Positions 20,155 to 58,643 of a stretch of DNA of 64,000 nt are shown here, piece by piece. The position numbers were made by a program, and so were the translations under genes. The stretch covers positions 15,190-79,189 of the IMG/VR virus record IMGVR_UViG_3300042505_000794; one strand, written 5' to 3'. This DNA is from a virus. Within the stretch, counting starts at the first letter, position 1. Every line of letters begins with the position of its first letter. The notes beneath the pieces were generated by a model. The model did no database searches. It was not told where the DNA came from and saw only the letters and a program-made list of their open reading frames with translations.

Positions 20155-20207
20155 AAATACACATTAAATATAAGTTACAACCAAATAAATGAACGGAGAA
20201 TTTAATA

Positions 20208-21296
20208 ATGAATTTTGACGGTATCAAGCTCGTTGAGGGATCAGCTAACTACAATATTGTAGCTACGACTCTAACACAGTCTCAACGACAATCCTTGCAA
20301 ACCCTTGAACTAGGTGAAATTATATATGTTACAGATGGAACTGCCCCAGGTATACAAGTGTATAACGGTTCCGGATGGAGTAATTTATCATTAGTGACAG
20401 CTACAAATACTTCAGTTACACCTACCGGTGGTATATCAGCAACTAATGTTCAATCTGCGTTAGCAGAACTAGATACAGAAAAAGCATCTGCAAGCTCATT
20501 ATCAACTGTTGCAGTATCTGGTCTATATGCTGATTTATCAAATAAACCTGATTTAGCTTTAAAAGCTGACTTAGTAAACGGTAAAGTCCCATCATCGCAA
20601 ATACCAGATTCAGTATTAGGTCAACTTGAATACCAAGGTGTTTGGGATATGTCTGTTGCTATGCTACCCGCCGCTCCAGAAAATAAAGGACATTATTATG
20701 TAGCCAATGCGGCAGGTAATGGCTATAATGTCGGTGATTGGGCTGTAAGTAACGGTATGACTTGGGATAAAGTAGATAATACTGACTCTGTTTTCTCGGT
20801 CAACGGGTATACTGGAACTGTAACTATTACAAAAACTGATATAGGTTTAGGGAACGTTAATAATACGTCAGACGCAAATAAACCAATTAGTACCGCTGCA
20901 CAAACAGCATTAGATCTTAAAGCTAATCTAGCTGGCGCTTCATTTACAGGAAATGTTGGTACCTCAGGTACAATATCGGATGGCATAGGTAATGTTCGAG
21001 CTATTCCTCAAAATCTACAATCAGCAGCGTACACATTAGTCGCATCAGATGCTGGTAAACATATTAATCTTACGACAGGCGGAGTAACAATACCTGCAGG
21101 TGTATTTGCTATTGGAGACTGTATCATTATTTACAATGATAGTTCGACAACTCAAACGATAACTTGTACAGCTGTTACTGCGTACGTTAGTGGTACTAAT
21201 GCAGTAAAATCTACGGTTATTTTAGCAGCTAGAGGGTTAGCGACGTTAATGTTTAACAGATTAACAGATGTAGTTATCTCAGGTGACGTTACCTAA
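20208..21296 (+). CDS. Fibre/structural protein, paralogous family
   Basis: Shared N-terminal LxEGS..N domain; GDWAVSNG module; IPQN..AYT C-terminal domain. Confidence 0.8.
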   Translation: MNFDGIKLVEGSANYNIVATTLTQSQRQSLQTLELGEIIYVTDGTAPGIQVYNGSGWSNLSLVTATNTSVTPTGGISATNVQSALAELDTEKASASSLSTVAVSGLYADLSNKPDLALKADLVNGKVPSSQIPDSVLGQLEYQGVWDMSVAMLPAAPENKGHYYVANAAGNGYNVGDWAVSNGMTWDKVDNTDSVFSVNGYTGTVTITKTDIGLGNVNNTSDANKPISTAAQTALDLKANLAGASFTGNVGTSGTISDGIGNVRAIPQNLQSAAYTLVASDAGKHINLTTGGVTIPAGVFAIGDCIIIYNDSSTTQTITCTAVTAYVSGTNAVKSTVILAARGLATLMFNRLTDVVISGDVT

Positions 21297-21350
21297 TGTA
21301 TCAGGTATATAAATAAAACGATGTTATATAATTAAATCAGGAGCTATACA

Positions 21351-23465
21351 ATGTTAGCAGATGGCTACCAATTAGCAGAAGGTACCTCAATAACCAATTT
21401 GGTACTAACCAACGTTACCGAAATTCAAAAACTAGCTTTACCTACACCTAGCATAGGTGAAATCGTATATCAAACTAATAACAATAACGGGGTATACGTT
21501 TATACAGGTACTGAATGGGTTAAGACCGCAACCGGTAGTGGTAATTTAACTTTACCCGCTTTTACTGGAGATATTGTATCAGATGTCGGGTCAAACGTAC
21601 TACGATTATCCAATATTACAACCGCAGGTACATACACTAAAGTAACAGTTGATGCTAAAGGTCGTATATACTCAGGGCTATCACCAACACTAATAGCTGG
21701 GTTGGGTATTACGGACGTATATACAAAAACTGAAATAGACACTCAAATGAGAGTAACATCTATTAACGGTAAAAAAGGAGTAATATCTAAATTAGCTCCC
21801 ACAGATATCAGTGGACTTTCCGCAAGTGCTACAACTGATACTACGAATGCAGCAAATATTAGTACCGGTGTATTATCTCCAGCTAGAATGCCAGTGTTTA
21901 CAGGTGATCTTCTCAACTCCCGCGATGATACATCCGTTGTATTGAGATCTATTACATCTAGTGGTACCTATAATAAAGTATCTGTTAATTCAAAAGGTTT
22001 AGTCACCAGTGGATCTGTTGAAACAACGTTGGCTGGATTAGGTATAACAGACGGTGTTAGCTCCAGTATGTTACCATCAGGTAACGCAACTACCTCACAA
22101 TTAGTAAGAGGTAACGATACACGGTTAAATGATGCAAGACCACCTACAGCACATACACATTACGCTACCGACGTCGTCGACTTATCATCCTTGATAATTG
22201 ATTCTATTTCGACAGCTATACAAAATAATAATGACGCTCTTAGAAATGGTGTATCATCCAATGGAGATACATTAAGAAAATTATATGATTTGATTACTGC
22301 AGGTACAATTCAAATTCCGGTACCTAATATTGCTGCAAGAGATGAATTGAATATTACCTCGATGTCTGTAACAGTATTTGTTGAAAATGATACGAATGGT
22401 GCATGGGCTGTATATAAGCCTACGTCACTCGGTATCAATGCAAATTATATGAAGCTTACCGATAAAGCTAGTTTAACTACTGCTACCGGTACATCTGTAG
22501 AAATCGTAGCAAATAAAGATACAGATGGTACGTTTAGTATGAATAGCGATATTCGGTACCCCTCTCAACGCGCTGTAAAAACTTACATTGATAACCGTAT
22601 ACGAGCAGCTGGACCGCAAACAACTGGAGCTATAGCATCTAGTGTTCATTCTATCAATGGTTATACACCAGATTTAACCGGTGATGTCGTTTTACCAAAC
22701 GTTTTATCAATTAACGGGTATAGTCCTAATGTTAACGGGTATGTATCAATACCTATCATTGAATCTATCAACGGATTGTCTCCAGATATTAACGGTGATA
22801 TTACACTATCAAGTATTCTAGCTATTAATGGTTTCGTTCCAGATGGTACTGGTAGCATTAATTTTGATTATATATCTAGTATCAATGGACGTACCGGAAC
22901 TATTAGTAAAATCTTACCTGGTGATACGAGTGGGATTTTCAACTCATCTACCGGAAAAGTTCTTTCATCGTTGATGCCTGCTTTTTCAGGAGATGCTACA
23001 TCTAATCCTGGGACTACGACACTAACCTTAAAAGATATGCCTAATTTATCAGCTGGTATATACAATGCGGTATCCGTTGATACCAAGGGTCGTGTTGTAG
23101 CTGGGCAATTTGTCAATTATGTAACATCTGATGCTAGCACGTTACAGTCCGGTACTATTAGCGGTGAACGATTACCCGCATTCTATGGTGATATCACAAC
23201 CGATGGTAGTACAGCTGAATTACGATTAACCCCTGTACCAAACTTAACACCTGGTACATATAATAGTGTGTCTGTAGATAATAAAGGTCGGGTCACACAA
23301 GGTGGTGTATTGGATACACTACCTGTAACCGTTGTTCGTCGTGGTAGACCTAATGTATCGTACAATATACCTATTGGAAATTTAGCAGGTTATGATTCTC
23401 TACCACTGATAGTAAGACGTCGCAATGGGTCTATTATGAATTATACTGTACCAACTAACTTATAA
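21351..23465 (+). CDS. Fibre protein, short paralog of the 2822-aa protein
   Basis: Collinear with the first ~300 aa of the giant protein and shares its C-terminal LPVxVxRR doublet; SINGxxPD repeats. Confidence 0.8.
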   Translation: MLADGYQLAEGTSITNLVLTNVTEIQKLALPTPSIGEIVYQTNNNNGVYVYTGTEWVKTATGSGNLTLPAFTGDIVSDVGSNVLRLSNITTAGTYTKVTVDAKGRIYSGLSPTLIAGLGITDVYTKTEIDTQMRVTSINGKKGVISKLAPTDISGLSASATTDTTNAANISTGVLSPARMPVFTGDLLNSRDDTSVVLRSITSSGTYNKVSVNSKGLVTSGSVETTLAGLGITDGVSSSMLPSGNATTSQLVRGNDTRLNDARPPTAHTHYATDVVDLSSLIIDSISTAIQNNNDALRNGVSSNGDTLRKLYDLITAGTIQIPVPNIAARDELNITSMSVTVFVENDTNGAWAVYKPTSLGINANYMKLTDKASLTTATGTSVEIVANKDTDGTFSMNSDIRYPSQRAVKTYIDNRIRAAGPQTTGAIASSVHSINGYTPDLTGDVVLPNVLSINGYSPNVNGYVSIPIIESINGLSPDINGDITLSSILAINGFVPDGTGSINFDYISSINGRTGTISKILPGDTSGIFNSSTGKVLSSLMPAFSGDATSNPGTTTLTLKDMPNLSAGIYNAVSVDTKGRVVAGQFVNYVTSDASTLQSGTISGERLPAFYGDITTDGSTAELRLTPVPNLTPGTYNSVSVDNKGRVTQGGVLDTLPVTVVRRGRPNVSYNIPIGNLAGYDSLPLIVRRRNGSIMNYTVPTNL

Positions 23466-23477
23466 GGAGTTTAATAT

Positions 23478-24992
23478 ATGGCAGAGGCCCTAAGCTTGAT
23501 CGAAGGATCTGTAAATGCAAATTTAGTATTTACAAATGTAACCAAAATACAGAAAGAAGCGTTAATTAATTTAGAAAAAGGTGAAACTGTTTATCAAACA
23601 GATGGATCGCCAAGCTTACAACTATATAACGGAACACAGTGGATTGCTATTGACGCAAAAAACGTGGTTGAGTATTCTGACAGTTCTGGTTTCCCTGCAG
23701 TTGGTAGTACTAACACGTTATATATCGACAAAACAAAAAATCTGGTGTACCGTTGGTCAAATTCTCAATACGTAAACATGTCATCTGGGTATGGTAAAGT
23801 TGGGTATGCTGGATTAATTGGTAACGGTGGTGTATCAAGTTTACCTATACCAACCGTAGATATAAAAGGTGTGTATTATGTAGCATCGTCATCAATCACA
23901 TCTCAAAATATTTCACTAAAAAGTGGTGACTGGGCAGTATGTAATGGTACGTCATGGGATAAAATTAACAACAATAATGCAGTTGTAACTGTAAATAGTG
24001 TATCTCCTGATATTAGTGGTAACGTCATGTTAACTGCTAATGATATCTCAGGCATTCCAGGTCTATATCAAAATACATTCATCGGTAACCAAACAGCACC
24101 AATATTTGTATCTACTGTGACAACCGGTACAGCACCATTCACCATTAATTCTACCACGGTTGTACCAAATTTAAACGTAAATTTGATAAACGGTGTGACG
24201 GTTTCAGGTACAGCAACCTTAGGACATGCGTTAATAGCTACCAGTGGTACTCAAGCTACTTGGCAAACCTTAGAATCAAAAGCTGATCTTGTTAATGGAA
24301 AAATACCTACTGCTCAATTACCTGATTCGATAGCTGGACAACTACATTATCTAGGTGTACGAAATATGTCAACCGCTTTACCAGCTGCTGCTGGATTAGC
24401 TGGAGGGTATTATATAACATCAGTAGCTGGTAACGGTTATGCTGTAGGTGACTGGGCTATCAGCAATGGCGCATCATGGGATAAAATAGATAATACAGAT
24501 GCGGTATCATCGGTTAATGGAAAAACTGGTGCTGTAACATTAACAAAAGCCGATATTATTTTAGATTCAGTTGACAACACAGCAGATATTAATAAGCCTA
24601 TTAGCACACTAACACAAGCTGCTCTAAACCAAAAAGCGAATTTGTCAGGAGCTACATTTACCGGAGATGTGAATGATAGTAGAGGTAATCTACGAGCTGT
24701 TCCTCAAAATAGTAGAACATCTGCATATACCTTAGCTCTGTCTGATATTGGTAAACATATTAGTATAACAACCGGTGGTATTACAGTACCATCAGGGATT
24801 TTTAGTGTAGGTGATGTTATAGTCATTTATAATAATAGCTCAACAGCTCAACCTATCACTTGTTCATCAGTAACCGCATATATGTCAGGTGTCGACGTTG
24901 TTAAAACCTCAATGTCTATGTCTCCTCGCGGTTTATGTTCTGTTCTATTTTATAGCGCTACGAGTGCTGTTATTTCTGGCGATGTTTATTAA
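23478..24992 (+). CDS. Fibre/structural protein, paralogous family
   Basis: Shared N- and C-terminal domains; two GDWAxxNG modules. Confidence 0.8.
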   Translation: MAEALSLIEGSVNANLVFTNVTKIQKEALINLEKGETVYQTDGSPSLQLYNGTQWIAIDAKNVVEYSDSSGFPAVGSTNTLYIDKTKNLVYRWSNSQYVNMSSGYGKVGYAGLIGNGGVSSLPIPTVDIKGVYYVASSSITSQNISLKSGDWAVCNGTSWDKINNNNAVVTVNSVSPDISGNVMLTANDISGIPGLYQNTFIGNQTAPIFVSTVTTGTAPFTINSTTVVPNLNVNLINGVTVSGTATLGHALIATSGTQATWQTLESKADLVNGKIPTAQLPDSIAGQLHYLGVRNMSTALPAAAGLAGGYYITSVAGNGYAVGDWAISNGASWDKIDNTDAVSSVNGKTGAVTLTKADIILDSVDNTADINKPISTLTQAALNQKANLSGATFTGDVNDSRGNLRAVPQNSRTSAYTLALSDIGKHISITTGGITVPSGIFSVGDVIVIYNNSSTAQPITCSSVTAYMSGVDVVKTSMSMSPRGLCSVLFYSATSAVISGDVY

Positions 24993-25008
24993 TTATCGGT
25001 AAATATTA

Positions 25009-26184
25009 ATGATTTATGAAAATTTAGTTTTAATTTCCGGTTCTGCAAATGCAAACTTAATTTGTACCAGTATTTCGTATGCTGAACGAATAGCATTAAT
25101 GGATTTAGAGCCTGGTGAAATCGTATACCAGTACAATACTTTTGGAACCAATACATCAGGGTTATATATCTATAACGGTACTAACTGGATTCAATTAGGG
25201 TTAAAAGGTGATGGGTTTACAGCTACATTAGCAGATTATAATATCAATAACGCGTATACCGTAACCGATATTAATACTCTGTTACAATCTAAAGCTAGTT
25301 TGGTAAATGGTAAAATACCTGAATCGTCGCTTCCGGATTCGGTACTCGGGCAGTTAAGCTACCAGGGTACATACGATATGGCTGTGGATCTACCAACAGC
25401 TACATTAGCCAATAAAGGTGATTTCTATATTGCTAATAATACAACTACTCAACGTGGGTATTATACCGGAGATTGGGCAATTAGTAACGGCGCAGCTTGG
25501 GAACGGATTGCCAACTCAGGTTTAGTTAGTTCTATTAATAATAGAACAGGTGCAGTAACATTAACCAAATCTGATTTAAGTTTAGGAAATGTAGATAATA
25601 CTGCAGATGTATCTAAGCCTCTAAGTGTAGCAGCTACTAACGCTCTAGCAACAAAACTTAACCTATCCGGTGGTTCACTTACAGGTCCATTAACATCATC
25701 AAGTACCATATGTGACGCTTCAAGTACTGAAATAAGCTATTTAGCAGGTGTGACTAGTTCTATTCAGTCTCAGCTAAATTCAAAAATCAATGGAAGTAGT
25801 CCAACCATTACCGGTACACTAACTGCTCCTACAATCTCTAGTACAACTATTAATTGTACTACAATTTCTGACGCAGCTGGTAATTTACGTAAAATACCTC
25901 AAAATTCACAAACGAGTGCATACACCGCTACATTATCGGATGTAGGTAAACATATTTCTACACCGGTAAGTGTAAATATACCAGCTAATGTTTTTAGTAC
26001 AGGTGACACTTTTATTATTTTTAATAATAGTATCTTACCTCAACTTGTTTCATGTTCAAACGTCACTGCTTACGCTTCTGGAAACACTACCGTACGTACA
26101 TCAGTAACGGTAGCTGCAAAAGGGTTATGTACCGTTCTTACAACTGGCACAAATGAATTTGTACTCGCTGGCGATGTAACTTAG
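25009..26184 (+). CDS. Fibre/structural protein, paralogous family
   Basis: Shares N- and C-terminal domains with the 20208 and 23478 proteins. Confidence 0.8.
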   Translation: MIYENLVLISGSANANLICTSISYAERIALMDLEPGEIVYQYNTFGTNTSGLYIYNGTNWIQLGLKGDGFTATLADYNINNAYTVTDINTLLQSKASLVNGKIPESSLPDSVLGQLSYQGTYDMAVDLPTATLANKGDFYIANNTTTQRGYYTGDWAISNGAAWERIANSGLVSSINNRTGAVTLTKSDLSLGNVDNTADVSKPLSVAATNALATKLNLSGGSLTGPLTSSSTICDASSTEISYLAGVTSSIQSQLNSKINGSSPTITGTLTAPTISSTTINCTTISDAAGNLRKIPQNSQTSAYTATLSDVGKHISTPVSVNIPANVFSTGDTFIIFNNSILPQLVSCSNVTAYASGNTTVRTSVTVAAKGLCTVLTTGTNEFVLAGDVT

Positions 26185-26193
26185 GCTAATATA

Positions 26194-27624
26194 ATGATCA
26201 TTTCAAGTTTTTTTAGTTCAAATTTACGTAGAACTCTAAACTGGGTTACCGCTACGAACCTCGGTAACCAAACAGATAGCACTATAACCCTTGCGTTACA
26301 AACAAATAGATCTTGTACATTTACTATCGTTTCAGTTACACCGAATGATATCAATGTATCAATTTCAAACGGAATATTAACCGTTTCGAATAATCCGAAA
26401 AACAACGTATCTTATTCGATTACCGTACTTGCATCATCAGGTCTTATTAGTGTTAGTAGAACTTTTACGTTTATTGCGTATAATAACCCTCCTACCTGGG
26501 TTACACCTAATAATGTTGTTTTTCCTCCTGTAACCCCTATATCGTATCAGTTACAAGTATCTGACTCTGATACGGCAGCCATTGCATATAGAATAACAGG
26601 CGGTGTATTCCATAATAATGTTCAAATGAGCATTAGCGGATTAATTACCGGTACTAATACGTTTGACAATCTTGATAGAATTGTATCCATTGAAGCTACT
26701 GATGGTGTTACATACCTATCTCGAACTTTCACATTTTATATGTCGCCGTACCAAGTCACTTTATCTTTCCCTACAGCTACTACGGTACCGACATCATCTG
26801 CAACCGGTATGGGACCCATTAATATTAATGATTCGTGGCTTAACGGTTCAACATCAGGTTGGATAGGTGGACGTAAATCTGATTTAATTGTACGGTACCT
26901 TGGAAATAGATCATATCCAGGACCTCAGGGTTATTTGAATGAGGGACTTGGTAATGGCAGTGAACCTACGGTTACCGTCAATCTAACCAATTCTAATATT
27001 AATACACTGTCAGTTGAATTTAACGGTATTATTGCTGGTCCATGGGGTAGGAAAGGTGAAAATCATAAGTATGCAGGTGATTACTATTTCCCTGGTAATG
27101 ATTTTTCTGGTACAAGCGGTGGTACAGGTCTCGCAATATATTGTCGAGGGAATTATGTTTTCACCGGGGGAGTATTTGGAGGTGCAGCTGGTGGGGGAGC
27201 GGGGGGCGGTGGCTTAAACTCCGGTACATATCCTGGAGGTGGTAACGGTGGTAGTGGTGGACCAGCTATTGTAATTTACAGTCAAGGTGTTAACATAATC
27301 AACAACTCCCAATTCGGTATCGGTGGTGGCGGTGGCGGTGGCGGGGGTGGTTGGGGATCATCAATTGATGGCGCAAGCGATGGAGTGTCCGGCGGTAACG
27401 GTAACCCGTATTACGGTGATAGTGGTAGTGGAGGTGGTGGTACCGGTACTGGAGCTACAGTCGGTGGTGCGGGTGGGTCATACGGCAATCCAGGTTCCAA
27501 CGGTGGTTTACATTCTAGCGGTCAATATTCTCGAGGTGGTGCAGCTGGTCCTGCTATAATGTCACCGTATGGGTATCCGTATACAATAACAGGTACTGGT
27601 GCAGTATTTGGTACAGTAGCGTAA
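26194..27624 (+). CDS. Glycine-rich fibre tip/adhesin with Ig-like N-terminal region
   Basis: Beta-rich N-terminal repeats; polyglycine C-terminal half resembling gp38-type adhesins. Confidence 0.65.
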   Translation: MIISSFFSSNLRRTLNWVTATNLGNQTDSTITLALQTNRSCTFTIVSVTPNDINVSISNGILTVSNNPKNNVSYSITVLASSGLISVSRTFTFIAYNNPPTWVTPNNVVFPPVTPISYQLQVSDSDTAAIAYRITGGVFHNNVQMSISGLITGTNTFDNLDRIVSIEATDGVTYLSRTFTFYMSPYQVTLSFPTATTVPTSSATGMGPININDSWLNGSTSGWIGGRKSDLIVRYLGNRSYPGPQGYLNEGLGNGSEPTVTVNLTNSNINTLSVEFNGIIAGPWGRKGENHKYAGDYYFPGNDFSGTSGGTGLAIYCRGNYVFTGGVFGGAAGGGAGGGGLNSGTYPGGGNGGSGGPAIVIYSQGVNIINNSQFGIGGGGGGGGGGWGSSIDGASDGVSGGNGNPYYGDSGSGGGGTGTGATVGGAGGSYGNPGSNGGLHSSGQYSRGGAAGPAIMSPYGYPYTITGTGAVFGTVA

Positions 27625-32450: not shown

Positions 32451-32945
32451 ATGAAATTGTTTGAAATACTCAATACAAGTATTCAATATCGATCTCCAAC
32501 TGCACATGACGCTGAAAAAATTGTTGATTTAAAAACACAATTATATATGCAAAATGGCGATAACATGCCTACCCCTCCTCGCTTAGAAGGTGAGCATACA
32601 AATATCAACGTATTAACATCTAAAAATAATTTTTATAAAATAGTAGTTAATGGTGAAGATATTGTTGGATATTGTTCTATGAAAGAATATAAACCATCAG
32701 AAGGTATTTTCGGTATAGGTATTTTAAATTCGTATAGTGGTCATGGAATAGGTAAAGCATTAATGACTGATCTTATTTCACATACAAAATTACATGGTAT
32801 CGATTCACTAGATTGTTATGTTGGTAAGACTAACGCACCTGCTATTGAATTATATAAAAAATTTGGTTTTGCAATAACTGGTAAAGAAGGTAATAATTTC
32901 ATTATGAAACTTTCATTCAATAATCGATTAACAGGTTTAAAATAA
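32451..32945 (+). CDS. GNAT-family acetyltransferase
   Basis: Motif A YSGHGIGKALM and motif B NAPAIELYKKFGF. Confidence 0.88.
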   Translation: MKLFEILNTSIQYRSPTAHDAEKIVDLKTQLYMQNGDNMPTPPRLEGEHTNINVLTSKNNFYKIVVNGEDIVGYCSMKEYKPSEGIFGIGILNSYSGHGIGKALMTDLISHTKLHGIDSLDCYVGKTNAPAIELYKKFGFAITGKEGNNFIMKLSFNNRLTGLK

Positions 32946-34478: not shown

Positions 34479-35210
34479 CTATACTAATGTTTCCATTACA
34501 TTAATTTCTGTCATTTGTAATTCACTATCTGGGATTTCTGATATCAATGATACGTCTGACACTTTTGCCACACGTATTTTAATATCTTTAATACGGTCAT
34601 CTCTTATTTGTGATGGTGCTACCAAGTATATTATTAGTTCGAATGTTAATGTATCTACTATAATTCTACGGTCCGTACCCAATGGCATGTTTTCACCGCT
34701 TGTAATGCCCGTCAAATCAACTTTTGTTATTTTACTACCGTCAAACTTAGAATCACTCGTTTGAATTTGTATACTTGGATTAAATAATACTAATATCTGT
34801 TCTAATATTTGCCAACGTGTGTCTGTATTGTTTGAAAAAATATGCAGCTCCATTGACATAGTAAACGGTACCGCTGTTATTTGACTGACTGTAACCGTAT
34901 CATGTGGAAATACACCACCTAACGGCGTGAATGCTGTCGTTTTTTCAGTATCTATACCTTTAAATCTGTCTTGCGCTAATGCCATTCCTGTCATAACAGC
35001 TGACATGATAGGTAACCGTAATGGTACGTTTTGTGTATTGTTCGTCATTATTGCTGCTACAGATCTATCCATTGACCCATACATGATTGGCACTTCAATT
35101 GTCTCAATTTCACCAGATTTGTTTATTCCTGTTTTTACCTCTGTTCCTCGAAATATCTCCATAAATTGGACAACATGTTTTTTTATTTGTTGTTGACAGA
35201 AATAAGCCAT
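34479..35210 (-). CDS. Tail terminator/sheath stabiliser (T4 gp15-like)
   Basis: YF..QQIK, VPIMYG, LPIMS, QILEQILVLFNPS. Confidence 0.88.
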   Translation of the reverse strand: MAYFCQQQIKKHVVQFMEIFRGTEVKTGINKSGEIETIEVPIMYGSMDRSVAAIMTNNTQNVPLRLPIMSAVMTGMALAQDRFKGIDTEKTTAFTPLGGVFPHDTVTVSQITAVPFTMSMELHIFSNNTDTRWQILEQILVLFNPSIQIQTSDSKFDGSKITKVDLTGITSGENMPLGTDRRIIVDTLTFELIIYLVAPSQIRDDRIKDIKIRVAKVSDVSLISEIPDSELQMTEINVMETLV

Positions 35211-35236
35211 GTATCACCTCGTTATTCTAATTTGTT

Positions 35237-35244
35237 TATTTATA
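35237..35244 (-). promoter_or_regulatory. Late promoter for the gp15-like gene
   Basis: TATAAATA on the minus strand, followed by a GAGG RBS. Confidence 0.65.
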
Positions 35245-35252
35245 ATATAAAA

Positions 35253-35320
35253 ACCTATGTATATTCCTTTGTTCCCTTTGGGAGATCATTGGACCATTAT
35301 TTTTTAATATCTAGGTATAT
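35253..35320. repeat. Conserved non-coding element, copy A
   Basis: TTTGTTCCCTTTGGGAGATCA (21 nt) and ATATCTAGGTATAT (14 nt) are identical to copy B at 56324-56393. Confidence 0.8.
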
Positions 35321-35383
35321 TAAAACTGGGTCATTTGTTCTCCTCAATTCTCCAATGTTCTACAGCTATACATATAAACGGTA

Positions 35384-35407
35384 GGAAAGAGCTGTTAAGC
35401 TCTTCCC
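35384..35407. terminator. Hairpin downstream of the sheath gene
   Basis: GGAAAGAGC-TGTTAA-GCTCTTCC; weak U tract. Confidence 0.5.
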
Positions 35408-35432
35408 TTGTTGTAGATAGTTTTTAAAACTA

Positions 35433-38400
35433 TTACATTGTCATTGGATCACCAGTTTTAACTAAAGAGATTGGAACATAAATGAACTCAATCGTTTTAG
35501 TTGGTTTCAATGCAATCTCAACGTACAACTCATTACGGTCAATGCTATCTGGTAAGTTATTTGTTTCATCACACAAAATAGCAAAATCGTATAAGCCGTT
35601 ATTAACACGAATATTGTTCAAGTACCCTGAGATAACTGAAACGATATTTTTGCGAACTGTATCAGTGTTTGCTTCCATCAAATATTGCATCATCATTTTT
35701 CTGATGCCTCTACGGATATGCATAACCATACGAGCAACGTTGATACGATCTAATGATGAATTAAACGCAACATTTACGCGAGTTTTTTGTCCCCATACCG
35801 CAATCCCGTGTTGTTCAGAATCATGAATTGGGTTAATGTTGCACAAATTGTATAAACTGTCACGCATACCATCATTTAAACGTACACGATGGAACACTGC
35901 TTGTGATGTACCTAATGTAGCCGCATCAACGTAACCTACTTGTGTTACACCTACTAAGCTTGAAATGATACCTCTATTAGGACCACCAGGAGCTGTCCAA
36001 ACATGACCAACATTATCGTTATATGTAAATGCCGCTAACGCTAAGCCAGATGAAGCACACATTACATCATATCCATCTAAGTTAGATACAACACCATGCG
36101 GATAGTAATAAGCAATCATACCACGGTTATCAGATCTGATATTTGCAGCTGTCGATACAATTGTATTTTCATCAACTGAACGTCCCCATTGAATCACTTC
36201 ACGAGGTGACATCCAATATGGTGTATCAGCAATTACAAATGCTTCTTGTTTAACGCGATCTGCTAACTCTAACATCTCATCTGCTAACTCAGGGTAACCT
36301 GGGCATAAGATAAGGTTAAATTCATATGCTTCAGATGTAATATCACTGACATCATCAAAATCACTTGAGATGTTGTAGTTTAATGTAGTGTTCGCTTTAA
36401 TAATCTGACTTAATTTTAAAACAATACCTTGTCTACGTACCGCATCAGATGTTGTGTAAACAGATGATTTACCTTTTGGATGTGTATTGTTATACCAGCT
36501 ATAAGTTTTAACAAACTCTTCACAACCAGCACGAACAAGATTTTTAAATGCTGTTAAATCAATACCACTAAACGGATTAACTAATGTTTTTGCAATTTTT
36601 GGTTTGTTTACAACATTAATTGTTAAGCGTGTATTAGCTGTATCTAATTCTAATGTATCTGTACCATTATCATCGTGTAAAAATTCAACAGCTGGGTTAG
36701 CAGTACTATTAGTAACTGTAATCGTAGCAGAAGTGGTTGCACCTGTGACTTCAAACACTAATGTTGATTCTAATGTACAAACCGGTGACGCTTGATTAGC
36801 ATCATAGACAAATGTACCGTAGCTGAAACCTGTGCTTTGTACTGCTTCTACTGAAGTTTTACCAACGTAGCTTAGTTTTGCATGTAAGCGATAGAATGTA
36901 TCCCCAGAAACTGTATCAATAAATTCATCTGCTGATAAAACTTCACCTGTAACCAAATTAGCATTATTTCCAGTAGCTGTTAAATCTAAGGTTACAGCTG
37001 TACCAGTTGAACCAATTGCAGTAACATTTAGATCTGTTTCTAATGCAGTAGTGATTGGTAACGTAATATCTTTGCTCAACACTGGTGTGAAGGTATGTAA
37101 AAATTCTTCACCTGCTGATAATGTATACTTACTAGCTGTTACGCTTGCACCAATTGTAACTGTTGAATTGAAAACAATAGCACTTACTGTTTCAACAGAA
37201 CTAGCTATACTAGCGGTTGCTGGCGTATACAGAATATTACCTGTAGCTGTACCAACTACTGTACCAGGTAGTTTTGGACCTGTCGCTGGTGTCGTAATAG
37301 TGTTTCCAGATAATACAAAATTTGTTTTACATGTGTAATTTACAATTTGTTTAGTTACTGGATCCATATTAGGTGTAATCGAATCAATAACACCACTAAT
37401 TACCAAATTATCACTACCTTGTGTGGCAATCGTTGTCAATGCAGGTAATGTTGAGAAATTAACATTTGCTTGAGCAGCATTGTATTTTAAAATTGTACCA
37501 CCAATTAACGATGTTTCGTCAATAAGAGCTTGATGTAATTTACCAACTATTCCGCGGAATAGTAAGCTATTATCAGTCTCACGTTGTAATGGATTCAACA
37601 CTGACGCTGATGTTGGTATAGCACCTTGTATTTTTCTTGCTCCGCTCGATACTAACAGGTTATATAATGTATCTTTTCCTGTAGTAACTGGATCTGTATT
37701 TTCTGCGTACGCTTCATACGCATAAACTTCATGACTACCGCCATTAACATCGTACTCAATAACAGCGTTTTCAACATCAACAAAGTTACCAGTAAGTACA
37801 TCTGTAATGTTGTACATTTTTGAGTTTGGATATTGATTTCCAAATGTACTGGTAACAGATGCTAGGTCTGTAGCCGCAGCACGTATAATCTCTGCTAATT
37901 TACCATTTTCACTGTGTACACGAACAACATTAGCGTAATACTCAGTCATTGCTTGCGCTGCTAATACTGGTGACATACCAGTTAAGTCTGGTTTTGCTAC
38001 AAATCCACCTAAATTAGTAACAACTGTTGGGTCAATATCATCGACACTTGCAAGGTATGTTGAAAACATTGCAGATGCTGAGTTAACAATTTTGTCAATC
38101 GCTAATGACCATTTATCTTGTAAATTTTCAATACTGTCATCTAAATCAATGTCAGCACGGATTACGTAAGCTCTGTTACCTAATTTCAAGAATTGGTTTA
38201 ATGCAAGCAAACCGTATTCATTACGAGCATCACCGTGTTGCGGTTGATCATACACGTCACGATAAAATACCGGAATGCCGTACATTTCGATACTTTCGCG
38301 CAATGATGTGATTAATCTAGGCATACCTGCTTCGATCGTACCTTTTGCAACAGTATTTGAATTGGGTAGTAATTTGCCGTATTTCGTGGCAATGAAAAAT

Positions 38401-38483
38401 AATGGTACGGTTGTTGCTGCTGCTGGCAAATACATCGATTTGTCAGTAACGGTAACTTGTACACCTGGGCTAAGTAATGCCAT
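35433..38483 (-). CDS. Contractile tail sheath (T4 gp18-like) with large insertion
   Basis: LLSPGVQVTVTD, NEYGLLA, FNLILCPGYPEL, WTAPGGPNRG, LDRINVAR, KPTKTIEFIYVP. Confidence 0.95.
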   Translation of the reverse strand: MALLSPGVQVTVTDKSMYLPAAATTVPLFFIATKYGKLLPNSNTVAKGTIEAGMPRLITSLRESIEMYGIPVFYRDVYDQPQHGDARNEYGLLALNQFLKLGNRAYVIRADIDLDDSIENLQDKWSLAIDKIVNSASAMFSTYLASVDDIDPTVVTNLGGFVAKPDLTGMSPVLAAQAMTEYYANVVRVHSENGKLAEIIRAAATDLASVTSTFGNQYPNSKMYNITDVLTGNFVDVENAVIEYDVNGGSHEVYAYEAYAENTDPVTTGKDTLYNLLVSSGARKIQGAIPTSASVLNPLQRETDNSLLFRGIVGKLHQALIDETSLIGGTILKYNAAQANVNFSTLPALTTIATQGSDNLVISGVIDSITPNMDPVTKQIVNYTCKTNFVLSGNTITTPATGPKLPGTVVGTATGNILYTPATASIASSVETVSAIVFNSTVTIGASVTASKYTLSAGEEFLHTFTPVLSKDITLPITTALETDLNVTAIGSTGTAVTLDLTATGNNANLVTGEVLSADEFIDTVSGDTFYRLHAKLSYVGKTSVEAVQSTGFSYGTFVYDANQASPVCTLESTLVFEVTGATTSATITVTNSTANPAVEFLHDDNGTDTLELDTANTRLTINVVNKPKIAKTLVNPFSGIDLTAFKNLVRAGCEEFVKTYSWYNNTHPKGKSSVYTTSDAVRRQGIVLKLSQIIKANTTLNYNISSDFDDVSDITSEAYEFNLILCPGYPELADEMLELADRVKQEAFVIADTPYWMSPREVIQWGRSVDENTIVSTAANIRSDNRGMIAYYYPHGVVSNLDGYDVMCASSGLALAAFTYNDNVGHVWTAPGGPNRGIISSLVGVTQVGYVDAATLGTSQAVFHRVRLNDGMRDSLYNLCNINPIHDSEQHGIAVWGQKTRVNVAFNSSLDRINVARMVMHIRRGIRKMMMQYLMEANTDTVRKNIVSVISGYLNNIRVNNGLYDFAILCDETNNLPDSIDRNELYVEIALKPTKTIEFIYVPISLVKTGDPMTM

Positions 38484-41363: not shown

Positions 41364-41789
41364 ATGGATAAAGATTATATAGAACATCCTTTTGAACAGA
41401 TGTTCGAGATTGAACCAGGTACCACCATATTACATAAACCGGATTATGATGACAACGGTATGGTTTTATACGATCAGTACGATGAAAAAGAGCAAGAGAT
41501 TGAAGCTCAATATCAAACAATCTATACAGCTGCATTCGCAGCATTTACAGATCAAGTAATGTCTACACAACGAGGTGAGAACCCCGGAATGTACGGTAAG
41601 AACTTAGAAGCAGCTGCTAAATTTTTATCAACAGCTTTAGATGCAGTTAAAGAAAAAGCTGAACTTAAACATAAAAAAGATAAAACAATTACTAAAACTG
41701 TTACAGCTACTAATGTTACAAATAATAATTTAATTATGGATCGTGAAGATCTTATTAAAATGTTACAAGGTAAAGCACTAGATGGCTAA
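41364..41789 (+). CDS. terS: Terminase small subunit (putative)
   Basis: Directly upstream of terL; C-terminal VTNNNLIMDREDLIK; TATAAATA at 41323. Confidence 0.7.
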   Translation: MDKDYIEHPFEQMFEIEPGTTILHKPDYDDNGMVLYDQYDEKEQEIEAQYQTIYTAAFAAFTDQVMSTQRGENPGMYGKNLEAAAKFLSTALDAVKEKAELKHKKDKTITKTVTATNVTNNNLIMDREDLIKMLQGKALDG

Positions 41790-42381
41790 AAATACAAGAT
41801 TAAAAATGCCGGGTCCTCCGGAAGAGTTTACACCTGACCAAGCATTAGAGTATTTGAAATGTTTGCAGGATCCAGTATACTTTATTGAAACTTATTGTAA
41901 GATTACTCACCCTACTAGAGGTATGGTAGGTTTCAAATTATATGATTTTCAACGTGAATTAGTAAATTCATTTCATCAAAATAGATCATCAATCGTATGT
42001 GCTAGTAGACAGGTAGGTAAATCTCAAACATCATGTGGTTTCTTATTATGGTATGCATGCTTTAATTCACATAAAGAAATCTTAATCATATCTAATAAAG
42101 CAAAAAGCGCTAAAGATATGGTAAAACGTATCGTGTTTATGTACGAGAATTTACCTAATTGGATTAAACCAGCTATCAATCCAAATAACTGGAATAAGTT
42201 AGAAATTGAGTTTGCTAATAAAAATCGAATTGTATCAGAATCAACAACAGATCAGAGTGGACGGGGTATGTCCGTATCCTTACTGTTCTGCTTAGGTGGC
42301 AATACAAAGGTAACAATACGCAATAAACAAACCGGTCAAATTGAACATGTAAGCATGGAAGAATTGTATGATAGAATGTAA
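41782..42381 (+). CDS. terL: Terminase large subunit, N-terminal part, fused to split-intein IntN
   Basis: DPVYFIETYC, LYDFQ, Walker A SRQVGKS, GRGMSVSLLF, then the intein start CLGGNT. Confidence 0.92.
   Translation: MAKNTRLKMPGPPEEFTPDQALEYLKCLQDPVYFIETYCKITHPTRGMVGFKLYDFQRELVNSFHQNRSSIVCASRQVGKSQTSCGFLLWYACFNSHKEILIISNKAKSAKDMVKRIVFMYENLPNWIKPAINPNNWNKLEIEFANKNRIVSESTTDQSGRGMSVSLLFCLGGNTKVTIRNKQTGQIEHVSMEELYDRM
42289..42378 (+). other. Split intein N-fragment (30 aa)
   Basis: CLGGNTKVTIRNKQTGQIEHVSMEELYDRM is intein block A starting at Cys1 and is followed by a stop codon. Confidence 0.88.
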
Positions 42382-43558
42382 TCGTATTAGTTATGCACCG
42401 GGTACATCATACCCAGATATATTTTTAGATAACAAGTATGCAAAAGTATATTTCAAATTAGTACATTATCGATTGTTAACTCCAGCTACCGATGGTCATA
42501 TTGAAAAACATCATATTATTCCAAAATCGTTAAATGGTGCAAATTGTGGGCTAAATATTGTGTCTTTATCTATACGTGAGCATTTATTTTGTCATAAAAT
42601 ACTACTAAAAATGATGACTTCTAAAAAAGGATATCATAAAATGTGTAGAGCAGCTTTGTTCATGTATGGAAAGTTTAAATGTTCTACTAATACAAAATTT
42701 ACTGCAGTGTTAATAGCATCATTAAAATGCACTGCTCGTGAAATGTTAATTGAACGTAACCAAACGACTAACCGTGACCCTGAAAAAATTCGTAAAACCG
42801 CTGAATTTCACCGAGGTAGGAAAAGACTTGAATCAACAAGAGCTAAAATATCAGATAAACTTAAACGCTCTATTGAGAAACGTGGTCATGGTTATTCTAA
42901 AAACTCTAAATCGTATTACAATCCGTTAAATCCAAATGAAACAAAACTTTGTTTTACAGATGATGATATACCTAAAGGTTGGGTTCTAGGAAACCCTAAA
43001 ATAAAAGGGCTTGTTAGTTATTTTGACCCTGCTACAAATGTAACAAAAAGATTTGTAGCGGGTTCACAACCTAATACTTGGGTTAAGGGAAGTCCCGCTA
43101 CTAGAAATAAATCTCATTACTTTAACGTTCATACCGGTAAAAGAGCACGGTTCCAACCAGGTACAGAACCAGAAGGTTGGTCAAAGGTATTACCAAAACC
43201 AAAAATTGAAAAACAATCAAGACGTAAAATAACATATTTTAACCCACTCAATTTTAAAGATACCTTAGTGTGTTTAGAAGGTTTAGGACCTGAAGGTTGG
43301 ATCTCATATAAAGAGAAAAACCTTAAACAACTTGATACGTATTACGACCCGAATGATTATTCTCGTAACGGCGTGTATTCTCCTTATACAGCTCCAGATG
43401 GTTGGGTAATAATTAAATCAAATAAAGGTTCAAAAAAATATATTAACACGGTAACCGGTGAATCAAAAAGATTTGGTATACATGATGCAGTTCCTGCTAA
43501 TTGGAAGATGTGGTCATGGGCTGCCAATTCTGATAAAAGTAAATGGAAGGCAGCATGA
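42368..43558 (+). mobile_element. Free-standing HNH homing endonuclease gene between the split-intein halves
   Basis: EKHHIIPKS..G.N...NIVSLSIREH..CH; NUMOD3-like segment; C-terminal Y(Y/F)(N/D)P...PxGW repeats. Confidence 0.88.
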
Positions 43559-43884
43559 ACGTTAAACAAAATACAGAATGGGAAATTTTAACTCCGGACG
43601 GGTTTAAAGATTTTAATGGTATATCTAAAACATATAAAAAACTTCAAAAAATCTATATTCAAGGTCATGATCCTATTTGGGCCTCTAAAAAACATTATTT
43701 CTATGTAGGTGGGCGTAAAACTAGAGTATCAGATCTTAAGAAATCAGGTTATATTGATTCAGTAGAAGGACCTAAACGGTATCGAAAAACAACCGTTTTT
43801 GAAAAACAGCATGCGTACGACATTATTGAAGTTAAACAAGAGAATCATCAATATCTTGTAAATGGTTGTTTTACAACAAAAAAT
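43555..43884 (+). other. Split intein C-fragment (~110 aa)
   Basis: ILTPDGFKDFNGI; block B SKKH; block F AYDIIEV..HQYLVNG; ends TTKN before Cys+1 of CDEFAF. Confidence 0.88.
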
Positions 43885-45381
43885 TGCGATGAGTTTGCGT
43901 TCGTTGAGCCAAATATAGCTGAAGATTTTTGGACCTCAATTTCTCCTACATTATCAACAGGTGGTAGTTGTATTATTGCTAGTACACCAAATGGTGATGA
44001 TAATAAATTTGCTGAATTATGGAGAGGAGCTAACCTTAATAATAATGGGTTTGTTCCGTTCTTTGTGCAGTGGGATACTGTACCAGGTCGGGACGAAACA
44101 TATAAACAACAAGAGATTGGTAAAATCGGACTTCAAAAATGGGAACAAGAATATGAATGTTTGCGTGGTGATAGTTTAGTTAATTTATTAATCGATAACA
44201 AAGAACGTATTGTTACAATTGAAAAATTACATCAGTTGTCAGCAGTAAACCACCATAACTATTTACACAAAAACACGTTAGATTATAAAATTAAAACACC
44301 TAATGGGTGGGAATCTTTTGCAGGTGTAGCTTTAATGGGTACAAAACCCGTCAAAGTTTTAACATTCGATGATGGTACCAATATTAGCGGTACAGATAAT
44401 CATATTTTATTTACTTCAGATAATGTAGAAATTCTTTTAAAAGATGTAGCAATCGGTACTACATTACGTGGTAAATCTAATAAGACGGTTGTAAATATTT
44501 CCAACGGTGAGATAGAAAAAGTGTATGATGTTATTGAAACAGAATCTCATACGTTTTATGCTAATGATATTTTATCTCATAATTGTAAGTTTATTTCTTC
44601 TGATCCATTATTGTTTAGTTCTACGTACATAACAAACTATTATTGCGATACTAAGGCTGAACCAGATGCAAGAGATATAACCTGGTTCGATAAAATTACA
44701 CCTGGTATGAGTTATGTAATAGCTATTGACCCAGCATCAGGTACAGGATCAGATTACACTGTTATGATTGTATACAGTTTTCCTGAATTAAATCAAATTG
44801 CTCAGTTTAGGTCAAATACCACATCTACACCTTTAGTGTACAACACATTTAAACACATCTTGCGTACTATTCAAGCAGGTGGTGCAGAAAATTGCTATTG
44901 GAGTTTTGAAAATAATGGTATAGGTGAAGGTTTGATTAGTATGTATGAATCAGATGAAAAACCTATTGAGTTCGGTGATCTAATTTCTGAACCTGGTAAA
45001 CGACGCATCGGGTTCTTTACTGGTAAAAATAAAACTAATGTTTGTTTGCTGTTCAAACAGATATTCGAATCAGGTAAAATGACGATTAAATCACCTACAG
45101 TTATTTCTGAGATGAAAAATTTTGTTAGACGTAGTGGATCTTTTTCTGCTCGTACCGGTAGTAACGATGATACAATATCTGCTCATCTTATTCTCGTTCG
45201 TATGTTACAAGAGTTAGTACAATATGAAGAACGTGCATACGATGTTGTGTTCCAACATAAAGAAGGTGAAGATATCTTTAACGATGATGATTATGACGAT
45301 TATGAACCACCTTTACCTGTGTTTGGTAACAATGGTGGACATGACATTAATTTTGATCAGTTTTTTACTGATGGTTGGTAA
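43555..45381 (+). CDS. terL: Terminase large subunit, C-terminal part (IntC, ATPase C-part, mini-intein, nuclease)
   Basis: ATGA overlap and GGAAGG RBS favour start 43555; CDEFAFV, STPNG, IDPASGTGSDY, ENNGIG, NDD. Confidence 0.92.
   Translation: MNVKQNTEWEILTPDGFKDFNGISKTYKKLQKIYIQGHDPIWASKKHYFYVGGRKTRVSDLKKSGYIDSVEGPKRYRKTTVFEKQHAYDIIEVKQENHQYLVNGCFTTKNCDEFAFVEPNIAEDFWTSISPTLSTGGSCIIASTPNGDDNKFAELWRGANLNNNGFVPFFVQWDTVPGRDETYKQQEIGKIGLQKWEQEYECLRGDSLVNLLIDNKERIVTIEKLHQLSAVNHHNYLHKNTLDYKIKTPNGWESFAGVALMGTKPVKVLTFDDGTNISGTDNHILFTSDNVEILLKDVAIGTTLRGKSNKTVVNISNGEIEKVYDVIETESHTFYANDILSHNCKFISSDPLLFSSTYITNYYCDTKAEPDARDITWFDKITPGMSYVIAIDPASGTGSDYTVMIVYSFPELNQIAQFRSNTTSTPLVYNTFKHILRTIQAGGAENCYWSFENNGIGEGLISMYESDEKPIEFGDLISEPGKRRIGFFTGKNKTNVCLLFKQIFESGKMTIKSPTVISEMKNFVRRSGSFSARTGSNDDTISAHLILVRMLQELVQYEERAYDVVFQHKEGEDIFNDDDYDDYEPPLPVFGNNGGHDINFDQFFTDGW
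44158..44583 (+). other. Contiguous mini-intein (142 aa) in TerL at QEYE|C
   Basis: CLRGDS...GTDNH...VYDVIE..HTFYANDILSHN|C; no endonuclease domain. Confidence 0.92.
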
Positions 45382-53908: not shown

Positions 53909-54383
53909 AGTTATATTGATTTAAATATTTCTGTTTTAAATCTTCCATTAAATCTGTATACTCACGATAATCTTGTTTATTTTTCCGTAAATCCATATAC
54001 ACATTATACGCATCTGTCATTGCTGAAAAATCTACAGGCGATATTCTAATCGATACCCAGTTCATATCATCGATACACCCGCGATTATTTCCTAATAACG
54101 AGTTAGCATATATTTTACCAATAACCTCACCTACCGACACTTTAGGTTGTGCATCTAATGATGTGTTTACTACTGAAATTTCAATTGGGAACGATCCATG
54201 AACCTTACCACAATTTGAACAAACAGAAAATGATAGTGTGTTGCCATCGTAGTTGATACCGCAGTTTTCTGGTACATATGATAGTAATTCAGAATTAGGC
54301 TTATCGGTGTAAATCCAAAAATTATCATAGCACTTTGACTCAACTGTCAATAACAGACCGTTACATAAGTTACATTGTTGCAT
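53907..54383 (-). CDS. Hypothetical protein with two CxxC pairs
   Basis: CNLC and CSNC. Confidence 0.6.
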   Translation of the reverse strand: MQQCNLCNGLLLTVESKCYDNFWIYTDKPNSELLSYVPENCGINYDGNTLSFSVCSNCGKVHGSFPIEISVVNTSLDAQPKVSVGEVIGKIYANSLLGNNRGCIDDMNWVSIRISPVDFSAMTDAYNVYMDLRKNKQDYREYTDLMEDLKQKYLNQYN

Positions 54384-55528: not shown

Positions 55529-55533
55529 ATCAT

Positions 55534-56250
55534 TTACCAGTTAATATCAATTAAATATTCAATAGGATCTTTTTGTCCTAAATTTTTAAATGCTCTTATT
55601 CTTTCTGCACATGATGGACATGTACCGCATGATTTACCATCGACGGGATCGTAACATGTGATAGTTTTTGAATAATCGCATCCAAGCTCTAAACCAATTT
55701 TAAGCTCTTCGGTTTTGTTTAAACTAACTAACGGTGTCAATACTTTAATTCCATGTAGTCTGTTTAACTCAACAATTCCAGATAATCGTTCAACAAACTC
55801 GGGCGTTGTATCCCAATAATTATACTGGTCGTTTGAATTTAAACCTAACGCTATAGCATCACACTCATTAGCTTCAGCGAATGATAGCAGCATAGATGAA
55901 AATAATAAGTTTCTAAATGGAACGTAGGTTATTGGTTGTGGGTTACCTAAAATATCAACAATGGTTGGCATTTCAATATCAGACCCACTAATATTCGTAC
56001 TAACTTTACGTGCTATATCACCTAAAAATGATATATCTACCGTTTTATGTACTACACCTAATTTTTCACACGATGCTTTTGCTAAATCTAGTTCAATGCT
56101 TTGTTTTTGCTGATAATAAAATGAAATAGCGTAAACGTTTTCGCTACCGTATTTGTCAGCTAACATATACAATAACGTTGTACTGTCTAATCCACCTGAT
56201 AACGAGATTGCTATTTTTTTGATGTCATCGTCTAAATTATTCATCTTCAT
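55534..56250 (-). CDS. queC: 7-cyano-7-deazaguanine synthase
   Basis: SLSGGLDS, TYVPFRN, C-x8-C-x2-C-x2-C. Confidence 0.95.
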   Translation of the reverse strand: MKMNNLDDDIKKIAISLSGGLDSTTLLYMLADKYGSENVYAISFYYQQKQSIELDLAKASCEKLGVVHKTVDISFLGDIARKVSTNISGSDIEMPTIVDILGNPQPITYVPFRNLLFSSMLLSFAEANECDAIALGLNSNDQYNYWDTTPEFVERLSGIVELNRLHGIKVLTPLVSLNKTEELKIGLELGCDYSKTITCYDPVDGKSCGTCPSCAERIRAFKNLGQKDPIEYLIDINW

Positions 56251-56323
56251 CCTTTTTGAGTTAAAAAAATTACATAGATATTATATATTATATCATTATA
56301 ATAAATCAATAAATATATGTTTT

Positions 56324-56393
56324 ACCTGTATGTTGTTCCCTTTTGTTCCCTTTGGGAGATCAAATGATCAGGCTAACATATATCTAGGTATAT
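56324..56393. repeat. Conserved non-coding element, copy B
   Basis: Shares identical 21-nt and 14-nt blocks with 35253-35320. Confidence 0.8.
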
Positions 56394-56461
56394 AAACTCT
56401 ATTCTCATTGAGTACCCCTAAGGGATTCAAAGGGATCATACATGTTCCATTTGAGGTTAAT

Positions 56462-56755: not shown

Positions 56756-56820
56756 AAATAATTTGTTATCATTATCATTTTATATTATAATATTCATTTC
56801 TAAACTTTATGAGGTTTGAG

Positions 56821-58352: not shown

Positions 58353-58391
58353 ATATGTATCCTGTATATCACTGTATTCTTTATTTATCTA

Positions 58392-58436
58392 TTGATTTTT
58401 TTAATAAAATTTACTATAATAACAACTGTATAAATA
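58392..58436 (+). promoter_or_regulatory. Tandem early and late promoters
   Basis: TTGATT-N17-TATAAT (58392-58420), then TATAAATA (58429-58436). Confidence 0.7.
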
Positions 58437-58628: not shown

Positions 58629-58643
58629 ACGAAGGAGATAATA

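Follow-up and report, generated by a model that had tools for sequence, protein, structure and literature searches.

A dyad-symmetric, multi-copy intergenic element at transcription-unit boundaries of a lake T4-like jumbo phage

Between the tail sheath and gp15 genes of an uncultured phage lies a sequence that recurs 21 kb away, in a second intergenic gap. A preliminary description, made from the letters alone, took it for a non-coding element of ~70 nt and left it between a small RNA family and a bipartite protein-binding, origin, or packaging site. How far does this element extend, how many copies are there, and does it act as RNA or as DNA? The window, i.e., the whole stretch of 64,000 nt analysed here, corresponds to bases 15190-79189 of a 79,189-bp IMG/VR virus record (35% G+C), the completeness of which is estimated at 23%. 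Positions below are those of the window unless the record or a contig is named.

The record is a fragment of a T4-like jumbo myovirus from lake water that is uncultured. It carries T4-like myovirus genes for the major head protein, tail sheath, tail tube, gp15 sheath stabiliser, gp14-type head closure protein, small and large terminase, and prohead protease. The nearest cultured phages by gp15 are jumbo phages, with Ralstonia phage RsoM2USA the closest (47%), followed by Xanthomonas phages XacN1 and Xoo-sp13, Stenotrophomonas phages, and Pseudomonas phage PA5oct. Near-identical sequence is present in DNA runs from lake-water and estuary metagenomes.

Copies of the element in the phage and its relatives

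The 20-mer TTGTTCCCTTTGGGAGATCA was present on the plus strand at 35269-35288 (copy A) and 56343-56362 (copy B) with 0 mismatches, as had been reported, and gave 0 matches in 100 dinucleotide-preserving shuffles. The 14-mer ATATCTAGGTATAT was likewise exact at 35307-35320 and 56380-56393. On its own and with 2 mismatches allowed, ATATCTAGGTATAT is unremarkable (3 found vs 1.78 expected); therefore, the significance is carried by the 20-mer and the linked arrangement. The spacer has diverged while keeping its length, as described: 18 nt in copy A and 17 nt in copy B, with unrelated sequences. Both copies proved to be intergenic, copy A in the sheath–gp15 gap and copy B in the queC–ORF97 gap, and copy A does lie between the sheath hairpin (35387-35404) and the gp15 promoter (late promoter, 35237-35244). 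The gene names "sheath" and "gp15" were also right (Pfam T4-gp15_tss, E 1.7e-35; PHROG tail sheath, E 1.2e-128). The features around the two copies are as follows.

35433..38483, minus strand, tail sheath gene; its stop side faces copy A
35387-35404, sheath 3′ hairpin; neighbour of copy A, outside the repeat, and the only terminator-like site near A, plus strand
35237..35244, minus strand, gp15 T4-type late promoter TATAAATA; ~68.5 bp from the copy A dyad axis
34479..35210, minus strand, gp15 gene; its start side faces copy A
55534..56250, minus strand, queC; flanks copy B
56275-56302, plus strand, candidate promoter TAGATA-16-TATAAT near copy B
56280..56309, minus strand, queC sigma-70-like promoter TTGATT-18-TATAAT, outside the element
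56462 onward, plus strand, ORF97 (97 codons, conserved) and then queE; the other flank of copy B

Sheath and gp15 (34479-38483) are the sole minus-strand genes in a 50-kb run of plus-strand structural genes.

Three points of the preliminary description had to be revised, the third being the closing stem treated below. The true element is ~100 bp long and has a right arm that had gone unnoticed, the ~70 nt covering the left two thirds; and the copies are more than two, since a third lies in the same record outside the window and a fourth locus in a relative. The search for additional copies that had been proposed found both by profile. The profile was built from six copies; copy C was absent from it and was detected with E 4.4e-07, and locus D was detected, also with a profile excluding it, with E 5.4e-12. 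Copy C (positions 7249-7357 of the record) is inverted relative to copies A and B. It is flanked by a topoisomerase II subunit gene and a 76-codon ORF on one side and by the prohead protease (gp21) gene with its TATAAATA promoter on the other. Locus D lies between a clamp-loader/HNH endonuclease/92-codon ORF group, of which it adjoins the HNH gene and the small ORF, and a DNA ligase gene with the promoter TTGATT-17-TATAAT. The ORFs of 76 (C), 97 (B), and 92 (D) codons were unlike by eye and matched no family, and the idea of an associated small ORF was dropped.

All copies are in long intergenic gaps at transcription-unit boundaries. The order is late gene, hairpin, element, and late promoter at A; early genes, terminator-like hairpin, element, and late promoter at C; and early genes, element, and sigma-70-like promoter at D, while copy B is placed between divergent early genes. 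In relatives with 60% identical gp15, gp15 directly follows a different gene, so copy A is at a synteny breakpoint.

The element was found at the sheath–gp15 site of relatives with the same gene order, namely four IMG/VR contigs with 75-76% identical gp15 and one at 57%, in which it was still recognisable (E 1.3e-21, with a profile that included that copy). Copy B is carried by a contig with 93% identical QueC. The orthologue of copy C is on a contig with an 88% identical protease, and the same contig holds locus D. A 55-kb contig with 75% identical QueC gave no significant copy (best E 0.21, in the queC upstream region), and neither did the 39 kb examined of a 133-kb contig with 72% identical QueC. 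In the former (L009, 2320-2420), the gap upstream of queC retains a GAGAT-bearing left box and an AT-rich centre, and the right box is missing; this gap resembles a degenerated or half version of element B.

Searching all of IMG/VR with a degenerate 21-nt pattern of the arm gave 5 stretches on 4 contigs, all of them already-known relatives. A looser pattern, box-N14-18-TAGATAT, matched at least 120 IMG/VR stretches, one of which among those listed (L130) was element-like. The single IMG/VR match of the Box 1 17-mer fell in a coding region of an unrelated GC-rich contig and was discarded as a chance match, as were the only matches of a distant blastn of the element (26-38 nt at E 0.5). Megablast of the region against GenBank phages gave no match; a scan of metagenome contigs with the gp15 alignment found 1 relative, in which the element is absent; and RsoM2USA has no gap before gp15. 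The element family is thus limited to a narrow clade of lake jumbo phages, where its loci number at least four. As the completeness of the genomes is 5-23%, further loci probably exist.

A selfish MITE- or REP-like miniature inverted repeat, spread to intergenic sites and functionless for the phage, would account for inverted arms, for multiple intergenic copies in both orientations, and for the restriction of the 21-nt pattern to this clade. Such a repeat is highly improbable here. The copies are stable at orthologous sites with flanking proteins 57-93% identical and diverge in step with their loci, and their right arms are locus-specific. Additionally, no target-site duplication was seen at the flanks, no presence/absence polymorphism among synteny-sharing close relatives, and no transposase was found in the fragments.

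Architecture and conservation of the element

The whole element spans 35264-35363 in copy A and 56336-56437 in copy B. Read on the plus strand of the window, it consists of Box 1, an 8-bp box, ~12 bp, a near-palindrome, ~11 bp, an inverted box, and a right arm. Box 1 is a TTCC(C)TTTG direct repeat leading into a short palindrome of the type TTCTCC-TTA-GGGAGA. Across copies, the left 8-bp box is of the type CAAATGAC and its inverted partner of the type GTCATTTG, and the central CTAG near-palindrome ATATCTAGGTAT sits on the dyad axis. The right arm holds two or three further (A/T)TCTCC motifs. In the outer arms, two or three G(A/T)TCTCC-type motifs are arranged partly as inverted pairs 3-4 bp apart and partly as direct repeats 10 bp apart. 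The parts of the two window copies are as follows.

35264..35287, plus strand, copy A Box 1: TTCC(C)TTTG twice, running into TCCC-TTT-GGGA; the part most common to all loci
35287..35294, plus strand, copy A left 8-bp box CATTGGAC; conserved at columns -21/-20 of the gapless stack
35307..35318, copy A central near-palindrome ATATCTAGGTAT; dyad axis between 35312 and 35313
35330..35337, plus strand, copy A right 8-bp box GTCATTTG, an inverted counterpart of the left box at a distance of 35 bp; conserved at columns +20..+25
35338..35363, plus strand, copy A right arm: TTCTCC/TTCTCC/TTCTAC, direct repeats with an exact 10-bp period
56336..56361, plus strand, copy B Box 1: TTCCC-TTTTG-TTCCC-TTT-GGGAG-ATC
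56361..56368, plus strand, copy B left 8-bp box CAAATGAT
56380..56391, copy B central near-palindrome; dyad axis between 56385 and 56386
56404..56437, plus strand, copy B right box CTCATTGA and right arm, the arm being an inverted Box 1 (CCCC-TAA-GGGATTC-AAA-GGGATC)

Since its right arm is an inverted Box 1, the whole of copy B is a long imperfect inverted repeat, and in the relative G001 the repeat formed by copy B is nearly perfect (-49.9 kcal/mol, z -7.8).

Nine copies were stacked without gaps, anchored on the central palindrome alone; they come from about five genomes, and several are orthologous. Both 8-bp boxes fell in the same columns of this stack, and the conserved columns were -45/-44, -38..-35, -32/-31, -21/-20, -4, +6/+7, +20..+25, and +35. 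Read off the rows, the boxes are spaced by 35 bp in copies of the A, B, and D loci and by 36 bp in those of C. The spacing script permitted 35-36 bp only; therefore, constancy is claimed from the gapless stack and its conserved columns, not from the script. The box centres are ~43 bp apart, equal to 4 turns. A periodicity peak of ~10 bp appeared in the right arm only, that of the left arm being ~8 bp, and the GC profiles of the two halves mirrored each other with a moderate correlation (r 0.48).

The TCTCC-type motifs keep their positions while their orientation flips between copies. A-type right arms have three direct motifs and B-type arms one direct and two inverted, and in the 57%-identity relative every such motif is reversed. 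In one relative, Box 1 is a perfect 18-bp palindrome with two 7-bp half-sites 4 bp apart, which is a dimer-operator form.

The copies are kept at orthologous sites in relatives with flanking proteins 57-93% identical. A elements of three genomes were 76-80% identical over 100 bp despite gp15 proteins of 75-76% identity, which indicates that the gap is under purifying selection. The left arm (Box 1) is common to different loci of the relatives, at 0.62-0.88 identity (A vs D, 0.86-0.88), and the right arm is locus-specific, at 0.85-0.91 among A orthologues vs 0.21-0.52 between loci. Box 1 variants go by genome: copies A and B of the window have CCC-TTT-GGG, and both copies of G001 have CTCC-TTA-GGGAGA. 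This hints at exchange between copies or at co-evolution with one binding factor. The left-arm identity of window A vs B was 0.70 (gapped), no higher than the 0.72 among A orthologues, so concerted evolution is supported by few positions only.

The explanation that we tentatively favour, at somewhat less than an even chance, is that the element, placed at transcription-unit boundaries, works in cis as double-stranded DNA: it would be bound by an oligomeric sequence-specific protein that acts on adjacent promoters. Inverted half-sites at a fixed spacing are kept across the nine copies irrespective of gene orientation, which is the mark of a dyad site, and the architecture is constant while the sequence varies. 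Copy C is inverted, yet it too is upstream of a minus-strand late gene, which argues for orientation independence. A DNA site readily tolerates the flipping of TCTCC-type motifs, which a fixed RNA helix would not survive. The dimer-operator-like palindrome of Box 1, the purifying selection, the independent detection of C and D, and the lack of an RNA signal (described below) also count for a DNA site. Several findings count against it: long-hairpin folds that beat shuffles in 7 of the 9 copies, a 10-bp period in the right arm only, a GC mirror of r 0.48, a variable distance to the promoter, the association of the element with only 2 of the 9 TATAAATA sites, and the small sample. The anatomy and placement are established, a solid description that overturns nothing; the steps of a mechanism are putative, being read from the sequence. 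In outline, the ~100-bp dyad-symmetric cassette would assemble an oligomeric DNA-binding protein, encoded by the phage or the host, of which a dimer or tetramer may read the boxes and the palindrome on one helix face. The arm motifs would supply cooperative or wrapping contacts, and the complex could then modulate the adjacent promoter or promoters or insulate the neighbouring units.

Promoters, transcription and RNA structure

Downstream of each copy, at 60-100 bp, is a separate promoter of the late (TATAAATA) or sigma-70-like type. Relative to the gene downstream, the element is reversed in A and forward in C and D. By manual count, the distance between the dyad axis and the start of the late promoter is 68.5 bp at A and likewise at C of the record, 69.5 and 67.5 bp in A orthologues, and 59.5 bp in the C orthologue. 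The -10 element of the sigma-70-like promoter is ~82 bp from the axis at D and 99-101 bp at B, and the distance thus varies with the promoter class (-10 elements at ~68, 82, and 100 bp). The T4-type late promoter has 9 sites in the record, the majority directly upstream of structural genes. Only 2 of these 9 sites have the element, which is therefore not a general late-promoter component.

T4-type phages are known to carry promoter-early stem-loop cassettes (PeSLs; Arbiol et al. 2010, PMC2839356; Comeau et al. 2014, PMC4122927), which the available text of these papers defines as a near-consensus sigma-70 promoter (TTGACA-N17-TATAAT or close) with a terminator stem-loop and describes as clustering around ORFans in hyperplastic regions. 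As far as that text goes, the present element is alike in being a short, repeated, clade-specific intergenic cassette of T4-like myoviruses with a stem-loop at unit or module boundaries, with a sequence that varies between phage clades. It differs in that its conserved core has no near-consensus promoter; in being dyad-symmetric, with a fixed box–palindrome–box frame followed by a separate promoter; and in adjoining core genes (gp15, gp21 protease, ligase, and queC). The copy number, 3 in 79 kb, is that of a genome ~23% complete.

A PeSL-like cassette, in which a stem-loop and a weak promoter end one unit and start the next and which serves as a substrate for recombination and module shuffling, is unlikely. 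Several observations are consistent with such a cassette. The four loci are at unit boundaries and several are at synteny breakpoints (gp15 in the 60% relatives; D beside the HNH gene); the Box 1 stem-loop is followed by a -35-like box; and PeSLs themselves, in the available text, combine a sigma-70-like promoter with a stem-loop in T4-type phages (PMC2839356, PMC4122927). On the gp15 strand, ATGACN-17 nt-GATAT(T/A), weakly sigma-70-type at 8-9 of 12, is kept in all four A orthologues. ORF97 starts ~20 nt past the copy B element in two genomes, so its mRNA must begin in or before the element and at least part of copy B must be transcribed. The within-genome Box 1 variants (window vs G001) would fit copy exchange as well.

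Other observations speak against it. Promoter scans of A and B reported no near-consensus sigma-70 promoter in the conserved core on the forward strand, where the box-to-TATA spacing is 21 bp; the gp15-strand candidate of copy A (ATGACC-17-GATATT) reaches 8 of 12; and a whole-genome search for box-N17-GATAT gave 5 sites with 1 inside an element, indicating that this is not a promoter class of the phage. Every neighbouring gene but ORF97 has its own separate promoter. The element hairpins have no T-run. Finally, the A–B left-arm identity of 0.70 does not exceed the 0.72 among A orthologues. As to a terminator or attenuator role of the Box 1 hairpin, the terminator scan gave only the separate sheath hairpin at A and nothing at B.

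A further group of promoter-bearing repeats is that of halovirus HF2, which carries promoters in its intergenic repeats (PMC8707807). In the available text of that source, these too are repeats specific to the virus that lie between genes at the borders of gene clusters and bear AT-rich motifs, and they differ from the present element in belonging to an archaeal virus with an archaeal promoter type, in lacking a dyad-symmetric frame, and in having an unrelated sequence.

An alternative is that the element is a structured RNA: either a small RNA that is made from the plus strand of copy A and has its end at the sheath hairpin, or, on read-through transcripts, a 5′ leader or processing site formed by a long hairpin (e.g., an RNase III target). 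We consider this quite unlikely. In its favour, long imperfect hairpins are predicted on both strands, and whole-element folds beat mononucleotide shuffles in 7 of 9 copies (z -2.4 to -6.8), so that some members of the family may form a hairpin RNA or a cruciform. A plus-strand TATAAT precedes both A and B. The one near copy A, reported earlier, does exist (35241-35246) and overlaps the minus-strand late promoter TATAAATA; it lies ahead of the sole terminator-like site on the plus strand (35387-35404). At copy B, the plus-strand candidate TAGATA-16-TATAAT (56275-56302) would make the element the ORF97 leader. Two metatranscriptome runs cover the sheath gene; they are stored as contigs, so neither ends nor strand are visible.

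Against a structured RNA, consensus folding yielded nothing: RNAalifold gave 0 consensus pairs for forward and reverse alignments of eight copies each. The family had not been recognised from the letters, and an Rfam search of the whole window likewise gave 0 matches at the gathering threshold. At E up to 1, Rfam returned no rows for copy B and three rows far below threshold for copy A, all of eukaryotic or plant-virus families. In single-sequence folds, the shared box pairs in different registers in A and B. The Box 1 hairpin is present in 6 of the 9 copies, marginal in 1, and absent in 2, and its A/T variation breaks pairs without compensation. The asymmetric T..G pair of the central palindrome becomes C..A in a C orthologue. 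In the 57% relative, the arms are direct, not inverted, repeats and there is no long hairpin; moreover, the orientation of the element to its flanking genes varies. The closing stem ACCT/AGGT, proposed around the Box 1 hairpin, does pair in copies A and B of the window, but the aligned positions of orthologues are unpaired, leaving it in 2 of 9 copies. Thus, between the two kinds of role first proposed, a DNA site for protein binding or a related function is the better supported, and the RNA role is not borne out by a consensus fold or an Rfam match. The idea of a mini-ORF (a box ATG after GGAG in several copies) was also rejected, as the Shine-Dalgarno-like motif is inverted in two copies and the 4-23-codon peptides are unrelated.

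Other possible DNA-site roles and related observations

A multi-copy replication origin or other DNA-transaction site, for initiator or helicase loading, packaging recognition, or a topoisomerase, is decidedly unlikely. Such a site would fit the dyad symmetry, the AT-rich 35-bp core (8/35 G+C in copy A), the inverted boxes and short repeated motifs, and the presence of several copies per genome between transcription units. We take the design to resemble that of dyad-symmetric viral origins, with an AT-rich centre and inverted initiator boxes, and of the pac sites of P1 and SPP1, with which it shares short motifs that flank a centre and are partly phased at 10 bp. GATC-containing motifs are present in several copies; copy C has none, and the idea of a GATC/Dam role was set aside for this reason. 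However, cumulative GC and AT skew track gene orientation and have no turning point at any copy, and no initiator gene was recognised in the fragment, whereas dyad-symmetric viral origins are tied to a known initiator. Pac sites are single-copy per genome, and three copies per 79 kb are too many for one. T4-type origins are promoter-dependent, unlike the element, which was counted against an origin.

A related and similarly doubtful proposal, to which we would give slightly less weight, is that the cassettes are sequence-specific loading sites for the replication or clamp machinery, either as a multi-copy dyad-symmetric origin, with inverted initiator boxes around an AT-rich core like that of some eukaryotic DNA viruses, or as a dedicated entry site that couples DNA transactions to nearby promoters. 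In the latter version, the promoters served would include two late ones on the minority strand, those of gp15 and the prohead protease, which both start ~68.5 bp from the axis. Either version, if true, would be a mechanism undescribed for T4-like phages.

In design alone, the element is also like BIME/RIP-type elements, in which inverted REP units flank an IHF site and which occur in bacterial chromosomes in hundreds of copies with their own REP sequence. They are likewise mosaics of ~100 bp with inverted hairpin-capable arms and an AT-rich central protein site, and are dispersed between genes, at operon ends, in both orientations. The centre of the present element differs in showing no IHF consensus by eye.

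Lake jumbo T4-like phages are uncultured, and, to our knowledge, their cis-regulatory signals are known only as promoters inferred by T4 analogy. The element is a conserved dyad-symmetric multi-copy boundary cassette specific to this lake jumbo phage clade; it marks the boundaries of early and late units and is symmetric, precise, and under purifying selection. If it is an operator or enhancer, it points to a DNA-binding regulator of the phage and offers a way into the timing of gene expression in the group; if it is an origin or loading site, it would change the view of how replication or late transcription starts in T4 relatives. In either case, it is a short, specific clade marker, and the profile can be used for finding copies in complete genomes.

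Several other features of the window were recorded. Two pieces in the same reading frame (41782-42381 and 43543-45381) make up the large terminase gene, and between them is an ORF in another frame (42368-43558) with a homing-endonuclease match (PHROG 655, E 1.1e-26). The Rfam search of the window found no group I intron at this site; what splits the gene may be a free-standing endonuclease gene or an intron that escaped recognition. Ahead of the large terminase gene is a small-terminase-like ORF (41364-41789). The region 54908-62004 holds a 7-deazaguanine (queuosine-precursor) set of queC, an amidotransferase-like gene, queE, and GTP cyclohydrolase, which suggests a modified guanine in the phage DNA, and two DksA/TraR-type zinc-finger ORFs lie within the queC operon (54370-54898). 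An ORF of 2822 codons with repeated tail-fibre-type domains (11686-20154) is followed by smaller paralogous tail-fibre-like genes (region 9203-27624), and a GNAT acetyltransferase gene (32451-32945) is located among the virion genes. A Sir2-like gene adjoins a nucleotidyltransferase gene (3305-5091). Tandem paralogous small genes of 91 and 96 codons, both PHROG 18771, are at 5187-5752, with a late promoter directly after them at 5767.
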